Below the pieces are notes generated by a model, which saw nothing but the letters and a program-made list of their open reading frames with translations, did not search any database and had not been told where the DNA came from. Of a stretch of 64,000 nucleotides of DNA, positions 18,784 to 60,530 are shown in pieces. The stretch's first letter is position 1. Each line of letters begins with the position of its first letter. The stretch comes from an uncultured Gammaproteobacteria bacterium (GTDB taxonomy: Bacteria > Patescibacteriota > Patescibacteriia > Magasanikbacterales > UBA922): positions 172,215 through 236,214 of the forward strand of contig CAYFPM010000001.1 in NCBI GenBank assembly GCA_964345045.1, given 5' to 3'. A program made the position numbers and the translations under genes.

Positions 18784-18870
18784 AGTTGTCGTAGTTCTCG
18801 TTCATTAATTGACTAGAATGTTTTTATGTCCATCTATTTTATCACAATTTGGCTTTATTATTGACATTTT

Positions 18871-19227
18871 TTGTTTTTTCATTTAGTTTCGATAGTGGAG
18901 GTGTCCATGGACAATTTGCAAAAACTCATCAGTGGTTTTGAGCGAGATGTACGCTATCCGATGCATACTCTGCGAGCCGAAGTGGGGAGGTCTACAGCTT
19001 CTCAGCAGATTCAAAAGATGGGGACAGCGGCCTTTGCGGCGATTGCCGAGCACTTGGCAGCAATCCCTCCTGGAGATCGTGATTCAAATCTATGCGAAGC
19101 TTGGATCCTGTTGTTGTGTTGGATGGGGCAGGATCTGAATATCGCTAGAGAAGATATGCCAAATGGTATCACTCACCAGTTTACCGACGATTGGATCGAG
19201 TGGGCTCGTAGCAACGCAGCCAACTAA
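18871..19227 (+). CDS. hypothetical protein (GC-rich island gene; the true start may be the internal Met at 18907)
   Basis: GC3-rich frame. A hairpin terminator follows at 19284-19316. Confidence 0.4.
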   Translation: MFFHLVSIVEVSMDNLQKLISGFERDVRYPMHTLRAEVGRSTASQQIQKMGTAAFAAIAEHLAAIPPGDRDSNLCEAWILLLCWMGQDLNIAREDMPNGITHQFTDDWIEWARSNAAN

Positions 19228-19407
19228 GGGGATTCCCGTAGCTACAATTCTTTTACCGGCAAGAGAGGCTCGGGAAAATTCAAAAACAGCTTTTCGTAAA
19301 GGCTGTTTTTGTTTGGTATAATTAAAAAGTTAGCCACAGCTCCCCCTTGACAAAAAGGGGAGAATATATTAACAATAAGTTAGGCGTAAAGCCAAAAGGA
19401 GTCGTTC

Positions 19408-19929
19408 GTGAACTGGGAAAATTTTGTCGCAAACTTTGCGAGTCTTTCTATCTTCGCAGGGGTTGTGGCAGTATTGCTTGTAGGTTTGGTCTATTGGGCC
19501 AATACCAACAGCAAAATCTCGTTCACAAAATCTCGGTTGCCCGATGTGGGGAGACCGGGAGACCCCAGCGGTTTTATCATGAGCTCTTGTCGAGCTCCGC
19601 CCGAGCCGATCGAGCTACCCTCTCGGCTACCATCATTCAACCAGCCAAAGCCTGGGCCGGTATTGGTGGTGCGGGGTGTACCTGCGGATCCTGTCCCAGT
19701 ATATCCGACTGAGGACGAGCCAATTACTCTAGAGGTGGATAATAGCCTTGGTGATCCCAACCAAGACAACAGGGATCACACTTTCCGCCCCGGACCAGCG
19801 ACTGGTTCGGTAGAGCTGGTGCACTGCCCCGAACATGGCGATGTAGGTATCATTGCCATAGGGAAATCGGTGGTCTGCCCTGGTTGCAGATCTCGTATTC
19901 CTGTCCCGGGCAAGCAGAAGTCCGCCTGA
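19408..19929 (+). CDS. hypothetical membrane-anchored Pro-rich protein with a C-terminal Cys4 cluster
   Basis: N-terminal TM helix, proline-rich middle, CPEHG...CPGCRSR zinc-ribbon-like C-terminus. GC-rich. A terminator follows at 19988-20021. Confidence 0.4.
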   Translation: MNWENFVANFASLSIFAGVVAVLLVGLVYWANTNSKISFTKSRLPDVGRPGDPSGFIMSSCRAPPEPIELPSRLPSFNQPKPGPVLVVRGVPADPVPVYPTEDEPITLEVDNSLGDPNQDNRDHTFRPGPATGSVELVHCPEHGDVGIIAIGKSVVCPGCRSRIPVPGKQKSA

Positions 19930-20120
19930 CTTCTTTCTAACAGAAAATCCGACGCTAATTGAAATGTGGCGCGTCGGAAAAATTCAAAAGCAACCTAAAG
20001 ATAGGTTGCTTTTGATTTTTAGATTTTACAAAAGTCGATATGTGAGATTGCCACCCTTCGACTTCACTCAGGGCAGGCTCGGACACAACGATTCTAGCAA
20101 TGATAGTAAAGAGAGGTTGT

Positions 20121-20187
20121 CTACTCCCAGACCCCCTCCCCGATGCTTCGATCGGGGCAGGCCAGCTCCCCCTAATAGGGGGAGAGT
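20121..20187. repeat. GC-rich modular hairpin repeat, copy 2
   Basis: Contains CCCCGATGCTTCGATCGGGG and CTCCCCCTAATAGGGGGAG hairpins. The module GCCTGCCCCGATCGAAGCATCGGGGAGGGGGTCTGG is shared (reverse complement) with 40813-40901. Confidence 0.7.
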
Positions 20188-20301
20188 TTTATATGCTACT
20201 ATTGACATATTGGCTAGATTATGGTAATTTTGTTAGTCGCTAAGGTTTGTTTTTTGGCTGCGTTTTTTGCGGCCACCTTGTGACTTTTTTGGAGGTTAAC
20301 T

Positions 20302-20682
20302 ATGCTTTTGGCAAGATGCCAGGCAGAGCTATGGGTACTCTATTCCAAAATAGAGTATCTGGAAAGAGAATTCGCAGCTGAATATAACACTGGCTGCAGT
20401 GGACTCGACCTAATCGTCCCTTTTTTGGAAACAGAAGTCCTTTCCCCCAAGAAACCTGTCTGGCAGAAGGAAGAGGCTCTAGAGAGGCTGAAAAAGTCTT
20501 GTAAAGATCTAGAGGCCTTGGAAAGACAGCTTCTACGGGATCATCCGCAAGCTCGTTTCGAGAAACTTCGTTTCCTCGATGAGCAGTTGAGACTTATGGA
20601 CGAAGGTGAAGAGAAACACGAGCTACGCCTAAGTCATGCCCGAATGACCACCAAGCTCGCAGAATTAAGAAGAGCTGCTTGA
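20302..20682 (+). CDS. hypothetical coiled-coil protein (GC-rich island gene)
   Basis: 126 aa, Glu/Arg/Leu-rich heptad-like sequence. GC3 is elevated. Confidence 0.35.
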   Translation: MLLARCQAELWVLYSKIEYLEREFAAEYNTGCSGLDLIVPFLETEVLSPKKPVWQKEEALERLKKSCKDLEALERQLLRDHPQARFEKLRFLDEQLRLMDEGEEKHELRLSHARMTTKLAELRRAA

Positions 20683-20791
20683 GTGGACTACCTCCCCTCG
20701 CTTTCGACCCCGCCACCACAGGCTGGGTCGGAGCAACAATCAAAAAATAAACAATCCTGCACCATTTTGGTGCAGGGTTTTTTGTTTTGGG

Positions 20792-22402: not shown

Positions 22403-22600
22403 ATGGCATTGAGAAATCGAGGAAGCGACGGGGTTGGCTACCAGCACGTGAACGTCAACAATGGTGGCTACACGAGCGTGGTCGTCCACGATGATGGGAG
22501 GGTGACCTCCTCGGGCTACGAGGTCCGCGACGAGCGGGTCGCCGAGCAGGCCAGGCGGGAGGCCGCCAAGGACAACGGCAAGGGCCGCCGCAGAGGCTGA
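22403..22600 (+). CDS. tiny GC-rich hypothetical protein (65 aa, Gly-rich)
   Basis: AAGGAG SD 9 nt upstream. Third positions almost all G/C. A perfect 15-bp-stem terminator follows immediately. Confidence 0.35.
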   Translation: MALRNRGSDGVGYQHVNVNNGGYTSVVVHDDGRVTSSGYEVRDERVAEQARREAAKDNGKGRRRG

Positions 22601-22604
22601 TCTG

Positions 22605-22656
22605 GGGGCCGGGTCGACGTACAACGTCGACCCGGCCCCATTCAATTATTTTTTAG
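22605..22656 (+). terminator. Strong hairpin terminator (GGGGCCGGGTCGACGT-ACAA-CGTCGACCCGGCCCC, then a T-run)
   Basis: Perfect 15-bp GC stem read directly from the sequence. Confidence 0.55.
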
Positions 22657-22869
22657 AAGTGCAGTGAGACTGTGCTTTTTTATTTATAAATTTTTTGATA
22701 AATAATATGATTCTATCAATAGTTTTGTGAATGATTCTGTAAAGTAGAAAAAGTAAGGATAAATAGAAAAAAATTATAGAGTTTAAAAATATTTGTAGAT
22801 TATCGTTATATTTTGCAATAAAGTATATGACGGCGCCTATATTTGCTACTAGTAATAGTAATGAGGGTA

Positions 22870-23121
22870 TTAGCCAATTGAATATTTTTTTGTTTTGCTA
22901 AGGTGATCGAAAAGTAAATTTAGGGGGGATATTACAAAGATTGTAATTGCGAAAGATATGCTTAGTAATCGTAAATATGCAAACAACAATTCTGAACTGG
23001 TGGTAGCATCATCAATAATGAAAACACCCGCTATTGGTAGAGTTATGAGTAGGTAGGGAATAAAAATACAACTACTTATTAGTAGTATGGTTATTATATG
23101 TTTTAGTGAGTTTTTGGGCAT
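22870..23121 (-). CDS. small two-TM membrane protein (third gene of the candidate defence operon)
   Basis: 83 aa with two hydrophobic helices. The start overlaps the upstream nuclease gene by spacing (stop at 23125, start at 23121). Confidence 0.4.
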   Translation of the reverse strand: MPKNSLKHIITILLISSCIFIPYLLITLPIAGVFIIDDATTSSELLFAYLRLLSISFAITIFVISPLNLLFDHLSKTKKYSIG

Positions 23122-23124
23122 AGA

Positions 23125-23571
23125 TCATTTAATCCTAATTATTGCACCCTTGGGTATTTCTCTCAAGTCGTAGTTAAATCCTTGCCATCCTTTTCGTTTT
23201 GCTGTTGGTGAGAGGGGATTTCTTGGTTTGAACATTTCGGGGACTTGGAGATCGGCAGAGAGATAATAGATAGAACTATTTTTGCCGTTTACTAGCACTA
23301 TATAAAGGGGGAAATATATTCCAGCATCCATGCGTTTTTTTTGGGGAGCCCAGGCTGCCCCCAAAATTGTAGAGGGTAATTGTTCTATATTGGAAACGTT
23401 TTTGGTTTTTACTTGAGCTACATACCCACAAAAATCGCATACCAAATCTGCGCATTTGAAATTGGTTGGCAAGGCTTTTAGGGTTTTACCTTTTTTACAC
23501 TTTGGGCAGACGCAATGCCTGGCAACGAATTTTTCTCCTTGGGTACCGAGTTTTTGTTTTTCGGTGGGCAT
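23125..23571 (-). CDS. PD-(D/E)xK-type nuclease-like protein (Hjc/YraN-like core) with an inserted CxxC...CxxC zinc ribbon
   Basis: GTQGEKFVARH (the G..GE..A motif of the YraN/Hjc family), a CPKC...CDFC zinc ribbon, ADLVCDF...AQVKT as a D...(E/Q)xK catalytic-motif candidate. 148 aa. Confidence 0.4.
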   Translation of the reverse strand: MPTEKQKLGTQGEKFVARHCVCPKCKKGKTLKALPTNFKCADLVCDFCGYVAQVKTKNVSNIEQLPSTILGAAWAPQKKRMDAGIYFPLYIVLVNGKNSSIYYLSADLQVPEMFKPRNPLSPTAKRKGWQGFNYDLREIPKGAIIRIK

Positions 23572-23633
23572 AATGAGGGCTTAACTTTTATTTATATAAC
23601 CAATGCCGGCTAGGTGGAAGAGGGTGCTTTTTT

Positions 23634-25913
23634 TCATATATTTGTAGAATTATTTGAAATGGAAACCATTTCATCGTAGTGTTTTTTATCTAAGTTTTCA
23701 ACAATTTCAAAAATGTTGCTTATAATATTATCTGATTCACCTATTAAATTATTTTCTGAATTTTCATAATCTTCTAGGGGCAAGTGGGAGTATTTATTAA
23801 TAAATCTATATATTTTCTCTTCAATATCTACATCAAGATCAACAGAGTTAATTAAAGCTCTGAAATCGTTTCTTTTTTTAGGGAATTTAAAACTCAAAAA
23901 AGATTCCAACAGTTTTCTGCTCAGGTTTGCAACTTGAAAAGATTTTTCTAAATCCAGTGTTTCGTAATTATTAAAAGAATAAAGTTTTGAAAAAACAAAA
24001 TGGTATTCTGAATTGTATAGGAGTAGTGTTTCCGGGATATTTTTAATAGCGGATTCTCTTGGTGTTTTTGGTAGAATATCGATTTGAAAAAAACTAGATT
24101 TTATATCACTTTTTTTATTTTTTCCTTTAAACCAATCTCTTATTAATCTGAAGAATGTAAAGTTATGAGTTAGCACAAAAAGTTGTTTTGCATTTTCTAG
24201 ATCAGCCTTTATGTATGAATATGCACTAAATAAATTATTAGAATCAAAACTTGATATTGGGTCATCAATTATAACTATTTCATTTTGAATTTGAGATTTT
24301 TCTTTTAGTTTTATTAAAAAGAAAATAAAAGCTATCGCAGTTTTTTCACCTTCACTCAAATTTTTTGCTTTCTTTTCATGGTGTGGCCTGTACACTTCAT
24401 AACCTTTGAGTTGTGGATTAAATTTAAGTTCAATTTCACTATGACTAATAAATTTTGCTAAATTTTTATTGAATTCCTCAGCACCTAGTTCTTCATTTGA
24501 AAGATCTGCTGTCAAATCAAAAATTGTTTTTGATAGAGCATTAATTTCTTCAACTAAAGTTTCTGAGTCCAATCTTGCCTTATTAATATCGTCTAATTGT
24601 TTAAGAAATAAAATGTCCTTTTCAAATTCAGTAGCGTAATGTAACTCCAACTTCTTTTGATTTTTTTTGTATTCCTCATCAAAATTTTTCCAGCTATTAT
24701 TGTGGGAAGATATTGTTTTTTCCAGGATCTCTTTTTTCTCATTGTATTTATCTAAAAAATTTTCTTTGATTTCTTTTTTCAAACCGAGAGGTTTTGAAGG
24801 ATTTTTAAATTTTTCTTCTAAAAGGACTTTCCATTCTTTAAAGAAAATATTTAATTCTTCTATTTCAATATCAAATTGTATCTTTGCATCTAAGAAATCT
24901 CTCTGAAATTCTTTGTAAAAAAGTTCTTTTTCTATCTTTATTTCTTCTTGAATAAGATTAGTTTGAATCCACATTTTTTCCTCTTCAATTCTATTGCGTA
25001 ATTTTTCTAGTTCATCACTAAAATGTTCTTTAAGTTTTTTGATGTGTGCTAGATCAATTTCGTTACCGCAAAATTCACATTTTTGGTCACTATATTTTTC
25101 ATGTATTTTTAGTCCTTTTTCTACCCATTCAGAAATATCTGAATTTTCTTTTAGACGCTCTATTATGCCAACCGATAAATCAAATTCGAGTATTTTTTTA
25201 ACCTTGACTTCCACTTGTCTTAAGGCGTTTAAATCCATTTTTTTGAGTGTATAATCAATGACATCTTTTTCATTCGGTCTAACTCTGTCTATTAGATTCA
25301 ATAATTCTGTTTCATTCAATTTGCCGCTACCTTTCTTAATTTCCTCTTGATTATCTAGAATAAAATTTTTAAATTTTGTTCTGTCATAGTTAAAGTAAGT
25401 TTTGTCTTCAGGTGAAATTGATTGAAAACTATTTTTAATTTCACTAGCTTTTTTTGAAAGTTCTTTTTTTATTTTATCACCGGTTTCTTTAATATATTTG
25501 TTTAGTGTAGCTAGTTTTTTGTTCTTTTCCTCATTTATTTTCTTGTTTGCATCAAGTTTGTTTTTTTCGTCTATTTTTTTAGCTGAAATAAGAAGAATAC
25601 TTTCAATTTTATTGTCCCAATCAATGTTTTCTTTAACGTATTCTTCGTTAAATACATTTATATTTTCTAGTTCTATTAAATCTAATTGGGTCAGGGTGTC
25701 ATTATCTATTTGAATTTTATACTCTACGTTTTCAAATTCACTTGGTAGGCTTCTTTCTTTATGCAAACTATTAAAAAATTTTGACAAGGTGGTCTTTCCA
25801 CACCCATTCCATCCATAGAAAAGATTAAATTTGGAGAATTTATTTAACCTAACATCTGCATTATAATTTGAAAATATCCCTAGATTTTTTAGTTGTTTTA
25901 TTTTGTATATCAT
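23634..25913 (-). CDS. RloC/PrrC-like AAA_13 ABC ATPase with a coiled-coil zinc hook and a C-terminal anticodon-nuclease-like motif
   Basis: N-terminal Walker A FYGWNGCGKTT, long Lys/Glu-rich coiled coil containing KCEFCGNE (CxxC hook), signature LSEGEKTAIAFIFFL, Walker B IVIIDDPISSFD, H-loop VLTHN, and a C-terminal LSRKLLESF...KYSHLP segment that fits the PrrC/RloC ACNase Arg-x3-Glu...His triad. About 25% GC. Confidence 0.55.
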   Translation of the reverse strand: MIYKIKQLKNLGIFSNYNADVRLNKFSKFNLFYGWNGCGKTTLSKFFNSLHKERSLPSEFENVEYKIQIDNDTLTQLDLIELENINVFNEEYVKENIDWDNKIESILLISAKKIDEKNKLDANKKINEEKNKKLATLNKYIKETGDKIKKELSKKASEIKNSFQSISPEDKTYFNYDRTKFKNFILDNQEEIKKGSGKLNETELLNLIDRVRPNEKDVIDYTLKKMDLNALRQVEVKVKKILEFDLSVGIIERLKENSDISEWVEKGLKIHEKYSDQKCEFCGNEIDLAHIKKLKEHFSDELEKLRNRIEEEKMWIQTNLIQEEIKIEKELFYKEFQRDFLDAKIQFDIEIEELNIFFKEWKVLLEEKFKNPSKPLGLKKEIKENFLDKYNEKKEILEKTISSHNNSWKNFDEEYKKNQKKLELHYATEFEKDILFLKQLDDINKARLDSETLVEEINALSKTIFDLTADLSNEELGAEEFNKNLAKFISHSEIELKFNPQLKGYEVYRPHHEKKAKNLSEGEKTAIAFIFFLIKLKEKSQIQNEIVIIDDPISSFDSNNLFSAYSYIKADLENAKQLFVLTHNFTFFRLIRDWFKGKNKKSDIKSSFFQIDILPKTPRESAIKNIPETLLLYNSEYHFVFSKLYSFNNYETLDLEKSFQVANLSRKLLESFLSFKFPKKRNDFRALINSVDLDVDIEEKIYRFINKYSHLPLEDYENSENNLIGESDNIISNIFEIVENLDKKHYDEMVSISNNSTNI

Positions 25914-25915
25914 GT

Positions 25916-26803
25916 TTACACCCCCCTCAACCTATTAACCCTCTCCTGTATCGGCGGATGAGTACTAAAAAGCTTCGAAAAGTTTTTCTTTTTGAAAGGA
26001 TTGGAAATAAAAAGATGAGCCGTAGCTGTGCTAGCCCGCTCTAGCGGCACATTGGACTGGCTAATCTTCTCTAGCGCCCGCGCCAACCCCTCTGGATACC
26101 GGGTCAGTAGCGCCCCACTCGCATCGGCCAAGAATTCGCGCTTACGAGAAATAGCTAGCTTGATCAGCTCGGCAACAATAGGGGAGAGAATAAGGAATAC
26201 CAGCGCTACAATCGCCATAATCGCTCCAGCCCCACCCTGCCTGTCGTTACTCCTGCGACCACCAAAGAGTTGGGCTCGCCAAAACATGTCGCCAATAAGA
26301 GCAATAATTCCTACCAGCACCACCACCACCGTCATAACCCGAATGTCGTAGTTCTGTACATGCGATAACTCGTGGGCAATGACACCCTCTAGCTCTTCAT
26401 TCTCTAGCGCCTCGATAATCCCCGTAGTCACAGCAATCGAAGCATGCTCTGGATCGCGGCCAGTAGCAAAGGCATTGAGTGCCGGGGAGTCTATAATATG
26501 TACGCGCGGCATAGGCATGCCAGCGGTAATCGCCAAATTCTCGACCATACGGTACACATACGGGTTGTCGTCTTTTTTAATCTCTTTGGCCCCACTACTC
26601 ACGAGCGCCACCTTGTCGCCACCATAGTAACTACCAATAGACATAAGACTAGAGATAACCACGGCAATCACAATAAAACTATAACCACCCTCGCCATAAT
26701 ACAGACTAAGTGCATAAGCCACCGCAATAATAAGCGCCCCAAAAATACCAATTAGGAGCCAGGTTTTGCGTTTGTTGTGGTCGATTTGTTGATAGATGTT
26801 CAT
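25916..26803 (-). CDS. htpX: protease HtpX (peptidase M48)
   Basis: HELSHVQNYD (HExxH), N-terminal TM helices. Paired with the upstream LemA gene. Confidence 0.85.
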   Translation of the reverse strand: MNIYQQIDHNKRKTWLLIGIFGALIIAVAYALSLYYGEGGYSFIVIAVVISSLMSIGSYYGGDKVALVSSGAKEIKKDDNPYVYRMVENLAITAGMPMPRVHIIDSPALNAFATGRDPEHASIAVTTGIIEALENEELEGVIAHELSHVQNYDIRVMTVVVVLVGIIALIGDMFWRAQLFGGRRSNDRQGGAGAIMAIVALVFLILSPIVAELIKLAISRKREFLADASGALLTRYPEGLARALEKISQSNVPLERASTATAHLFISNPFKKKNFSKLFSTHPPIQERVNRLRGV

Positions 26804-26920: not shown

Positions 26921-27490
26921 TTACGCCCCCAAATCCACCTTCACATTCTCTCTCTCACTCGCATCTTCAATCTCAAAAAACTCAAACTTCTCAAAACTCA
27001 TCATTTTGGCGAATAGATTATTTGGAAAAGTTTCAATCTTGGTATTAAAGTCACGGACCATGCCGTTGTAAAATCTTCTAGAAGCTTGGATCTTGTTCTC
27101 GGTATCACTTAGCTCGTCCATAAGCTGGGCTACATTTTGGTTAGCTTTAAGATCTGGGTAGGCCTCGACAGCAATTTGCAATTTGCCTAGCATGCCACCA
27201 AGCATACTTTCGGCACTAGCTAATTCAGCTGTGTTGCCAGCCTCCTGGGCAGCCATAGCCTGGCTTCTGTACTTAGTTACATTTTCTAGCAGCTCACGTT
27301 CGTGTTTCATGAACCCTTTTACACTATTTACCAAGTTTGGAATTAGGTCGTGACGGCGTTTTAGTTGCACATCTATGTCGCTCCAACCTTCTTTGGTGCG
27401 GTTTTTAAGTTTTACGAGGGCGTTGAATACGGCAATACCCCATAGTACTAGGGCAGCTACAACTGCCAATACTATATATAATGTGTTCAT
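26921..27490 (-). CDS. lemA: LemA family protein
   Basis: N-terminal TM helix plus a conserved LemA core (NALVKLKNRTKEGWSDIDVQLKRRHDLIPNLV). Confidence 0.8.
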   Translation of the reverse strand: MNTLYIVLAVVAALVLWGIAVFNALVKLKNRTKEGWSDIDVQLKRRHDLIPNLVNSVKGFMKHERELLENVTKYRSQAMAAQEAGNTAELASAESMLGGMLGKLQIAVEAYPDLKANQNVAQLMDELSDTENKIQASRRFYNGMVRDFNTKIETFPNNLFAKMMSFEKFEFFEIEDASERENVKVDLGA

Positions 27491-28882: not shown

Positions 28883-29257
28883 ATGGAAGGTGGGGCTATA
28901 AAACATTTTACAGATCTTAATGCTTGGAAAGTTAATCATGAATTTGTAAAGGTTGTGTACCAAATAACAAAAGATTTTCCAGAAGAAGAAAAATTTGGAC
29001 TCAGGTCACAATTAAGAAGAGCAGCTTCCTCGATTACTGCCAATGTAGCAGAAGGATTTGGAAGATACTACATGAAGGACAGAATCAGATTTTATTACCA
29101 GGCAAGAGGATCAAATACAGAGTGTCAAAATCATTTGATATTGGCGTATGAGCTTGGTTATATCAATAAAGAAAATTACGAGGTGTTAAAGAATAAAGTT
29201 TTTGTAGGTTACAAATTATTGTGTGGTTTAATAAGAAGTTCAGAAAATAATATTTAA
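28883..29257 (+). CDS. four helix bundle protein (23S rRNA intervening-sequence protein family)
   Basis: The whole 124 aa matches the family pattern (DLxAWK...NIAEG-like SITANVAEGFGR). Confidence 0.8.
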   Translation: MEGGAIKHFTDLNAWKVNHEFVKVVYQITKDFPEEEKFGLRSQLRRAASSITANVAEGFGRYYMKDRIRFYYQARGSNTECQNHLILAYELGYINKENYEVLKNKVFVGYKLLCGLIRSSENNI

Positions 29258-60150: not shown

Positions 60151-60320
60151 ACCCTTGGTCGGATTTATAAATATGCCTTATTTTGCTGGCGTGGAAATGC
60201 TTGTAAACACAAAGCTCCCCGCCAGCGATGACCCCGAAGGATCACCCATACCCCTTTCGGGGTACGACCGACCAAGGTATCTGAGCGGAGAGCTTAATAC
60301 CTTGGTCGGGTTTGTGTGCC
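60151..60320 (+). ncRNA. candidate structured cis-regulatory RNA: three copies of CCTTGGTCGG (direct/inverted/direct) enclosing two internal hairpins
   Basis: P1 CCTTGGTCGG(60153)-CCGACCAAGG(60268). Inside lie GCTGGCG...CGCCAGC and CCCCGAAGG...CCTTTCGGGG hairpins. A third CCTTGGTCGG (60300) can alternatively pair with CCGACCAAGG, which is an antiterminator/terminator-like topology. About 60% GC in an AT-rich spacer. Confidence 0.25.
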
Positions 60321-60530
60321 ATACCCTAAAAGATAAATCCTCTAGGGGTTAGGCTTGAATTGTCGAAATAATATCAAATCATCAAAAAAATTTACAAATG
60401 TGAATTTGATATGTAGCGATCATACTATATTTTTTGTTTTATATCAAGAGAATAATATACGCACTTCTTTTTTATCCACATTCGGACAATTTTGCTATTC
60501 GGTATATTTTCGGGTATACTAAATTTACCT

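Follow-up and report, generated by a model that had tools for sequence, protein, structure and literature searches.

The locus described here lies in a stretch of 64,000 nt (hereafter the window; positions 172,215 to 236,214 of contig CAYFPM010000001.1, GenBank assembly GCA_964345045.1). Three open reading frames (ORFs) coding for 759, 148 and 83 amino acids (aa) are arranged head to tail on the minus strand, behind the lemA and htpX genes, where an earlier note on this DNA had placed them. That note had presented them as an undescribed three-gene defence architecture, consisting of a RloC/PrrC-like ATPase, a second nuclease and a small membrane protein. The three products and the loci of their homologues were analysed by profile searches, structure prediction and neighbourhood surveys. 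Judged by its sequence, the 759-aa protein is very likely a typical and apparently intact member of the RloC family, and not part of a new three-gene defence system. RloC is already catalogued, in defence-system surveys under that name and in PADLOC as PDC-S06.

The 759-aa protein and its RloC relatives

In profile searches, the 759-aa protein matched Pfam AAA_13 at 5.5e-137 (residues 12-736) and the PADLOC PDC-S06 model PDLC04894 at 5.9e-164 (residues 1-752 against profile positions 1-737 of 740); eight more PDC-S06 models also matched. PDC-S06 is a single-gene candidate, and its match to the protein is full length; the label itself is computational, and the papers that mention it merely list the name. 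The PADLOC PrrC hidden Markov model (HMM) gave a weak match of 1.6e-5 to the C-terminal third (residues 484-736). Several homologues are annotated by JGI as 'wobble nucleotide-excising tRNase'.

All of the motifs that had been quoted for the protein were present: GWNGCGKTT (Walker A), LSEGEK (signature), IIDDPISSFD (Walker B), THN (H-loop), KCEFCGNE (zinc hook), and LSRKLLESF and KYSHLP for the C-proximal triad. Their conservation was followed in an alignment of 51 homologues, with identities down to 23%. The motifs of the ATP-binding cassette (ABC) were invariant or nearly so (G37-x-G-K40-T-T, L519-S-E-G-E523, D550-D551-P-x-S-S-x-D557 and T582-H583), and the hook cysteines (C279-E-F-C282) were invariant. 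Both R666 and H710 were found in 51/51 sequences, position 670 was Glu in 45 and Asp in 6, and S709 was kept in 49/51; the C-proximal spacing in the 759-aa protein is R666-x3-E670-x39-S709-H710.

An AlphaFold2 (AF2) model of the protein (mean predicted local distance difference test, pLDDT, 85) comprised an ABC head, a helical insert of ~380 residues (about 111-489) and an all-helical C-domain that holds the triad. A short hairpin (277-284) carrying the CxxC lies near the middle of the insert. The CxxC is a predicted zinc hook. The top Foldseek matches were the heads, with coiled coil, of Rad50 and of structural maintenance of chromosomes (SMC) proteins (7zr1 Rad50, E = 5e-8). A phmmer search of the PDB sequences returned PstB alone (E ~0.6).

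Davidov & Kaufmann (2008, PMC2610378) recognised RloC by four sequence features. ABC motifs of the PrrC type are combined with a coiled-coil insert that has a CX2C zinc hook at its centre; near the C terminus lies Arg-X3-Glu-X36-52-His, in which a Ser often precedes the His; and the length, 658-897 aa, is roughly double that of PrrC. In active RloC each residue of the triad is essential (PMC2610378). The ABC motifs, the CX2C insert, the triad motif and the size were all found in the 759-aa protein. Its description as a RloC/PrrC-type zinc-hook ATPase with an anticodon nuclease (ACNase) triad therefore stood on the published sequence criteria.

The RloC enzymes of Geobacillus kaustophilus and Acinetobacter ('wobble nucleotide-excising tRNase' in COG) share with the 759-aa protein the size range, the Walker A, signature, Walker B/D-loop and H-loop motifs, the CxxC coiled-coil insert and the R-x3-E-x39-S-H arrangement. 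Their relatives are likewise scattered, AT-rich and mobile, and often lie by restriction-modification (R-M) genes or travel as single cargo. The gene studied here differs in its host, which resembles the Candidate Phyla Radiation (CPR) and Paceibacteria, and in its place 2 nt behind the housekeeping gene htpX, with no mobile-element genes nearby. PrrC (E. coli, EcoprrI type Ic R-M locus) has in common with it the ABC N-domain and the ACNase triad (PrrC R320/E324/H356), but is only 341-416 aa long, lacks the coiled-coil/zinc-hook insert, and is always embedded in, and silenced by, hsdMSR. None of these distinguishing PrrC features was found for the 759-aa protein; within 10 kb either side of its gene no hsd or other R-M genes were detected except the DpnI-like ORF described below. 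Among solved structures, the ATPase head and coiled coil are matched best by Rad50/SbcC and SMC proteins, and the CxxC hook lies mid-insert in the 759-aa protein. Rad50, however, lacks the C-terminal HEPN-type nuclease domain, the coiled coil of the 759-aa protein is much shorter, and no gene for an Mre11/SbcD partner is present at the locus.

The loci of the closest relatives differ from one another. P0003 (62% identical) is solitary, with tyrS on one side and an ABC transporter on the other, and P0002 (62% identical) has a GmrSD_N-HNH gene 30 nt downstream (L005 3745-4992 (+)); GmrSD is a family of modification-dependent type IV nucleases. P0004 (60% identical) is encoded 16 nt behind an AlwI-type R-M system of an endonuclease and two methylases (L117 1795-6220 (+)); the methylases are a RadC-MethyltransfD12 fusion and an N6_N4 methylase. 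Of two relatives that are 49% identical, P0007 lies within an island with CBASS (cyclic oligonucleotide-based antiphage signalling), MmeI and resolvase genes, and P0008 is flanked by the hsdM and hsdS genes of a type I system. At 16 further RloC loci the commonest neighbour families were ResIII, HSDR_N, Methylase_S and N6_Mtase. Homologues of RloC were found on 237 plasmids, 157 of them conjugative. In 19/20 loci rloC was AT-richer than its flanks, and AT-richness can for this reason be regarded as a habit of the family.

These contexts agree with the published habit of RloC. The name stands for 'restriction-linked orf', and a type Ic restriction enzyme always accompanies PrrC (PMC2610378); this speaks against the view in the earlier note that RloC/PrrC is not known to be paired with a second nuclease. 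According to the literature, genes of the RloC/PrrC type, which code for HEPN nucleases, are often embedded in R-M operons, and rloC also travels as single cargo.

Layout and composition of the locus

The positions of the genes and of other features are listed in Table 1. The stop codon of htpX (TAA, 25916-25918) is followed 2 nt on by the ATG of rloC at 25913, and rloC is separated from the DpnI-like gene by 62 nt; both distances were as previously given. The gap between the DpnI-like gene and the 83-aa ORF is 3 nt and not 4 nt. A Shine-Dalgarno-like run, GAGGGGGG, is located within the last codons of htpX, ahead of rloC, where it can provide a possible ribosome-binding site for this gene.

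Table 1. Features of the rloC locus (positions are those of the window)
Feature	Position	Strand	Basis
lemA	26921-27490	minus	Pfam LemA 1e-58
htpX	25916-26803	minus	Peptidase_M48 1e-33
htpX/rloC junction	25914..25940	minus	sequence and GC
rloC-family gene, 759 aa	23634..25913	minus	ORF list and profiles
DpnI-like gene, 148 aa	23125..23571	minus	ORF list and profiles
83-aa ORF	22870..23121	minus	ORF list
four-transmembrane gene, corrected, ~158 aa, including the 83-aa ORF	22646..23121	minus	homologues and frame continuation
A7 homopolymer, frameshift point of the membrane-protein gene	22885..22891	minus	sequence
perfect 16-bp GC-rich inverted repeat, GGGGCCGGGTCGACGT / ACGTCGACCCGGCCCC	22605..22639	none	repeat search

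Across the junction of htpX and rloC the GC content falls from ~49% to ~26%. The GC content and the GC fraction at third codon positions (GC3) were 26.5% and 0.20 for the 759-aa gene, 40.9% and 0.37 for the 148-aa gene, 31.3% and 0.26 for the 83-aa ORF, 49% and 0.53 for htpX, and 43% and 0.44 for lemA. Among the three genes, only rloC is strongly AT-rich. The AT-richness that had been ascribed to the whole operon (~25% GC) therefore held for the 759-aa gene and not for the other two, and the background against which it had been set (~38%) was replaced by a measured 43.9% for the window. The rloC gene looks horizontally acquired. The 3.3 kb from htpX to the GC-rich hairpin of Table 1 are a small patch of accessory genes, and not a three-component system.

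A scan for promoters and terminators detected no terminator-like sites on the minus strand from lemA to rloC, and predicted none between the rloC, DpnI-like and membrane-protein genes. The promoter part of the scan was uninformative, with 20 promoter-like sites against 18.3 expected from shuffling. Because the 2-nt junction leaves no room for a promoter or terminator, and because no terminator appeared in the scan, read-through from lemA-htpX is plausible, and rloC is probably read from the lemA-htpX promoter. The 16-bp hairpin lies 6 nt beyond the stop codon of the membrane-protein gene as corrected, with a T-run after it on the plus strand only; it is likely to mark the end of the minus-strand transcription unit.

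The other side of the hairpin is occupied by a 65-aa ORF (22403-22600 (+), 64% GC), which converges on the patch, stops 4 nt short of the hairpin and codes for a Gly/Arg/Val-rich product. Beside DNA of 24-31% GC it looks compositionally foreign. Further along, a GC-rich block from about 18800 to 20700 (45-54% GC, against about 35-40% nearby) contains ORFs of 118, 173 and 126 aa without a Pfam match. No significant family was returned by Pfam for the GC-rich ORFs at 18.9-20.7 kb and at 22.4-22.6 kb or for the membrane protein in its corrected form. Taken together, the GC-rich block and the rloC patch form a compositionally mosaic region (18.8-25.9 kb) that is probably variable.

Direct and inverted repeats that might serve as att sites or represent target duplications were searched for between 21.7 and 27.0 kb; apart from the 16-bp hairpin, all matches were short, AT-rich and attributable to chance. 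As regards a possible integration site, scans of the 64-kb window for tRNA, tmRNA and Rfam families detected no tRNA gene. The sole Rfam match in the window was a full-length LOOT RNA (RF03000) at 60227-60355 (-), with 78 bits against a gathering score of 46.4.

The two small genes

The 148-aa protein had been described as a Hjc/YraN-like PD-(D/E)XK candidate with an inserted zinc ribbon. The PD-(D/E)XK fold and the Cys4 zinc site were retained; the kinship was replaced by that to the catalytic domain of DpnI. The protein matched Pfam DpnI (PF06044) at 1.7e-20 (73.9 bits against a cut-off of 26.7) and PADLOC mREase_II at 2e-10, and a phmmer search of PDB returned R.DpnI (4esj) at 2.4e-12. The AF2 model (pLDDT 93) was superimposed by Foldseek on DNA-bound DpnI (4kyw_A) with a template-modelling score of 0.83, a root-mean-square deviation of 2.2 A and E = 2.8e-10. 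A Hjc/YraN-like nuclease was rejected: neither Pfam nor NCBIfam gave such a match, and Hjc structures were found by Foldseek only at E = 0.05-0.7, with template-modelling scores of ~0.3.

Residues were mapped through the phmmer alignment, and the roles of the DpnI residues were taken from PMC3424567 and PMC4117772 (numbering of the PDB chain = native + 3). The catalytic residues E25, D53, E64 and K66 of DpnI correspond to E13, D42, Q53 and K55, and the DpnI Cys4 zinc site to C22, C25, C45 and C48. The cleft for N6-methyladenine (m6A), formed in DpnI by L129, R135, W138 and G140, corresponds to L120, R126, W129 and G131, and Q18, which contacts thymine, corresponds to Q6. At the 84 loci of the family (L033-L116; 57-78% identity to the 148-aa protein, locus GC 25% to 68%) the four cysteines were invariant, and the pocket was kept almost throughout: L120 in 84/84, R126 in 83/84, W129 in 83/84, G131 in 84/84 and Q6 in 82/84.

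The catalytic set of DpnI is present with the exception of Q53: E13, D42 and K55 are conserved, and the position of Glu64 is Gln in 84/84 loci, giving D..QxK. The DpnI mutant E64A has its activity abolished; a D..QxK arrangement is, however, named for the Mrr catalytic domain, and Q53 was for that reason rejected as proof of an inactive nuclease. Since the Gln corresponds to the D..QxK of Mrr, Q53 is best read from the alignment as a family trait rather than as decay. A second difference from R.DpnI (type IIM, Gm6ATC-dependent; 4esj, 4kyw), with which the catalytic-domain fold, the Cys4 zinc site and the m6A cleft are shared, is the absence of the C-terminal winged helix, the second Gm6ATC readout of that enzyme. 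The 148-aa protein ends where the DpnI chain, 257 residues long, has reached residue ~157, and the whole family is ~148 aa long and without a winged helix. Proteins of this family probably bind or cut m6A-GATC DNA.

At 90% identity the family forms at least 507 clusters, and a search of the literature found no paper on a DpnI-domain-only family. Clustering of all ORFs at 80 metagenomic loci gave no conserved neighbour of the DpnI-like gene. The gene was present in 0 of 50,697 phage records and on 1 of 72,556 plasmids, in sharp contrast to the mobility of RloC. Unlike R.DpnI, the family is unusually conserved, chromosomal and solitary. Such strong conservation is unusual for a restriction-type nuclease, and it suggests a constrained role, possibly the reading or nicking of m6A-GATC. 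An adjacency of htpX and the DpnI-like gene in relatives, by which the insertion of rloC might have been dated, was not seen, the two closest DpnI-like loci being elsewhere (after def, and near lepA/recJ).

The 83-aa ORF had been taken for a complete protein with two transmembrane helices. It is the N-terminal half of a gene for ~158 aa and four transmembrane helices, interrupted by a 1-nt frameshift in a run of seven A (A7). An exhaustive HMMER search of 1.84 billion representatives returned 7 homologues of 124-164 aa, and in each of them it is the N-terminal half that matches the ORF. Beyond the A7 run, the -1 frame stays open for ~80 more codons, which code for two further hydrophobic helices, up to a stop at 22646-22648; one extra A in the run would give ...SKTKKIFNWLIP... 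The corrected 158-aa sequence aligned end to end with the homologues (62% identity to P0243), and both halves are in one frame in loci L121 and L122. The idea that the ORF is a spurious orphan was rejected: a word-indexed search had returned the ORF itself and nothing else, and the exhaustive HMMER search the longer homologues.

The genome is metagenome-assembled, and identical sequence, the A7 run included, stands in two assemblies (L001 and L002; ENA project PRJEB17505) that were made independently, each from its own sequencing run. The gene could be a pseudogene in which the frameshift is fixed, the run could be phase-variable, or both assemblies could share an error. The four-transmembrane family is rare, and its homologues are encoded in non-defence, CPR-like contexts, by NusA/DHH, type IV secretion system (T4SS)-pilin, VWA and serine hydroxymethyltransferase (SHMT)/ABC-transporter genes, and the gene is probably functionally separate from rloC and the DpnI-like gene.

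Gene association and proposed mechanism

Besides the window, 34 RloC-like, 84 DpnI-like and 4 membrane-protein loci were surveyed by tblastn. At least 1.5 kb on both sides was available for 23 of the 34 RloC-like loci; among the 84 DpnI-like loci, the upstream flank reached 2.5 kb or more in 32 and the downstream flank 0.6 kb or more in 55. At none of these loci was one gene of the trio accompanied by another. The three are not conserved as a unit, and the two small genes are unrelated neighbours of rloC. The proposal of an undescribed three-gene defence architecture could therefore not be upheld, the ATPase being in addition already catalogued, and it failed the refutation tests that the earlier note had itself set.

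The characterised Geobacillus and Acinetobacter enzymes served as models for the mechanism. RloC is a wobble-nucleotide-excising tRNase that is switched on with ATP and linear DNA, its ACNase becomes active in response to linear DNA and double-strand breaks, and mutations in the zinc hook deregulate it; Acinetobacter RloC works without its R-M system. From the motifs and the fold found here we infer tRNA cleavage, its trigger and any defence phenotype as follows. The 759-aa protein would be a self-contained, single-protein device for abortive infection or stress, in which the Rad50-like ABC head and the coiled coil with its zinc hook keep the nuclease silent and sense DNA ends. DNA ends, together with ATP hydrolysis, may release the C-terminal HEPN-type anticodon nuclease (R666/E670/H710), which would then excise the wobble nucleotide of a few selected tRNAs, so that translation stalls. 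The tRNA-cutting activity is assigned to the 759-aa protein by homology with the characterised enzymes.

Several points weigh against reading the locus as a lone RloC gene with chance neighbours. The neighbourhood sample was small (34 and 84 loci), and many of these are on short contigs. The shared strand, the intergenic distances (62 nt and 3 nt) and the lack of a predicted internal terminator are also compatible with an operon. Among the four nearest members of the clade whose context is known, the window included, two have a modification-dependent nuclease directly downstream, and a loose functional pairing of RloC with 'some restriction nuclease' is possible. Membership in the family, and with it the likeness to the named enzymes, rests on published motif definitions, profiles and annotation, and no PrrC or RloC structure has been solved with which the C-domain could be compared.

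If RloC and the DpnI-like mini-nuclease formed a lineage-specific two-gene module, the PrrC-EcoprrI pairing would have a counterpart based on type IV restriction. The DpnI-like protein would cut or mark Dam-methylated (Gm6ATC) phage DNA, and the ends would switch on the RloC ATPase and nuclease. We consider such a module unlikely. Both genes are on one strand, 62 nt apart and with no predicted terminator between them, but their GC contents differ strongly (26.5% and 40.9%), and neither gene recurs with the other, the DpnI-like gene being at 0/34 other RloC-like loci and an AAA_13 gene at 0/84 other DpnI-like loci, including the 32 with at least 2.5 kb upstream. The m6A pocket and the zinc site are kept in the DpnI-like protein, yet its family has no conserved neighbour of any kind. 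The response of the RloC ACNase to linear DNA and double-strand breaks is in line with the scheme, and so are the GmrSD_N-HNH gene 30 nt after P0002, the AlwI system ahead of P0004 and the frequent occurrence of related HEPN genes within R-M operons; set against these is the independence of Acinetobacter RloC from its R-M system. The observed/expected ratio of GATC in the window, 1.03, an uninformative value, gave no depletion and no sign of an anti-Dam life-style.

A functional link between the two proteins is mechanistically attractive, because restriction cuts would supply the DNA ends that activate RloC. It was nevertheless rated low, and is held to be quite improbable, because the pairing was seen in this genome only and the two genes differ in composition. 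Equally doubtful is the wider notion that RloC nucleases are modular 'second-line' partners of an adjacent DNA-cutting module, which in this clade would be a modification-dependent nuclease (DpnI-like here, GmrSD-HNH in a 62% identical homologue). Were the DpnI-like protein to feed DNA ends to RloC, this would bear on the triggering of RloC during infection, and the locus would be the first case of coupling between RloC and a nuclease that depends on m6A (type IIM/IV-like), with cleavage of modified phage DNA leading to wobble-base excision.

That the 759-aa protein is an AAA_13 ATPase with some other function, such as DNA repair or SMC-like plasmid maintenance, and its 'triad' structural, is very unlikely. 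AAA_13 is a broad family, and many homologues are carried on conjugative plasmids near ParB and RadC genes, but the contexts of the relatives are dominated by R-M and defence genes. The match to the PrrC HMM is weak (1.6e-5); R666 and H710 are nonetheless invariant, and position 670 is Glu or Asp, in 51/51 homologues down to 23% identity, and the spacing of the triad and the preceding Ser are exactly as in published active RloC. A new abortive-infection system of three genes, with RloC as sensor and effector, the PD-(D/E)XK protein as second nuclease and the membrane protein as disrupter or anchor, has the close spacing on one strand and a hairpin only after the third gene in its favour, and is extremely improbable in view of the frameshift of the third gene in two independent assemblies, the non-defence contexts of its homologues, which are never found with RloC or DpnI-like genes, the failure of any two of the genes to co-occur elsewhere in the sample, and the PADLOC entries, in which the third protein has no model and the other two are separate single-gene entries.

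On the preferred reading, that of a typical single-gene RloC, one more gene is added to a family that is already known biochemically and counted by defence-system finders. A small point of interest is that a reduced genome of CPR/Paceibacteria-like type carries RloC, and does so immediately after a membrane-stress operon. The DpnI-domain-only family, being large, conserved and solitary, with a D..QxK site and an intact m6A pocket, is the more promising lead.

Two minor observations concern the neighbours of the DpnI-like genes. An ORF with an 'ADPPWYF' motif was found near the DpnI-like gene in 3/80 metagenomic loci (including L052 1824-2507 (+)), too few for an association. The motif is typical of MT-A70-type adenine methyltransferases, and such a putative enzyme would be odd beside a presumed m6A-dependent nuclease. 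In the window, a 124-aa protein of the 23S_rRNA_IVP family is encoded at 28883-29257 (+), between rseP and pheS, and a member of the same family is encoded near the DpnI-like gene in locus L115.

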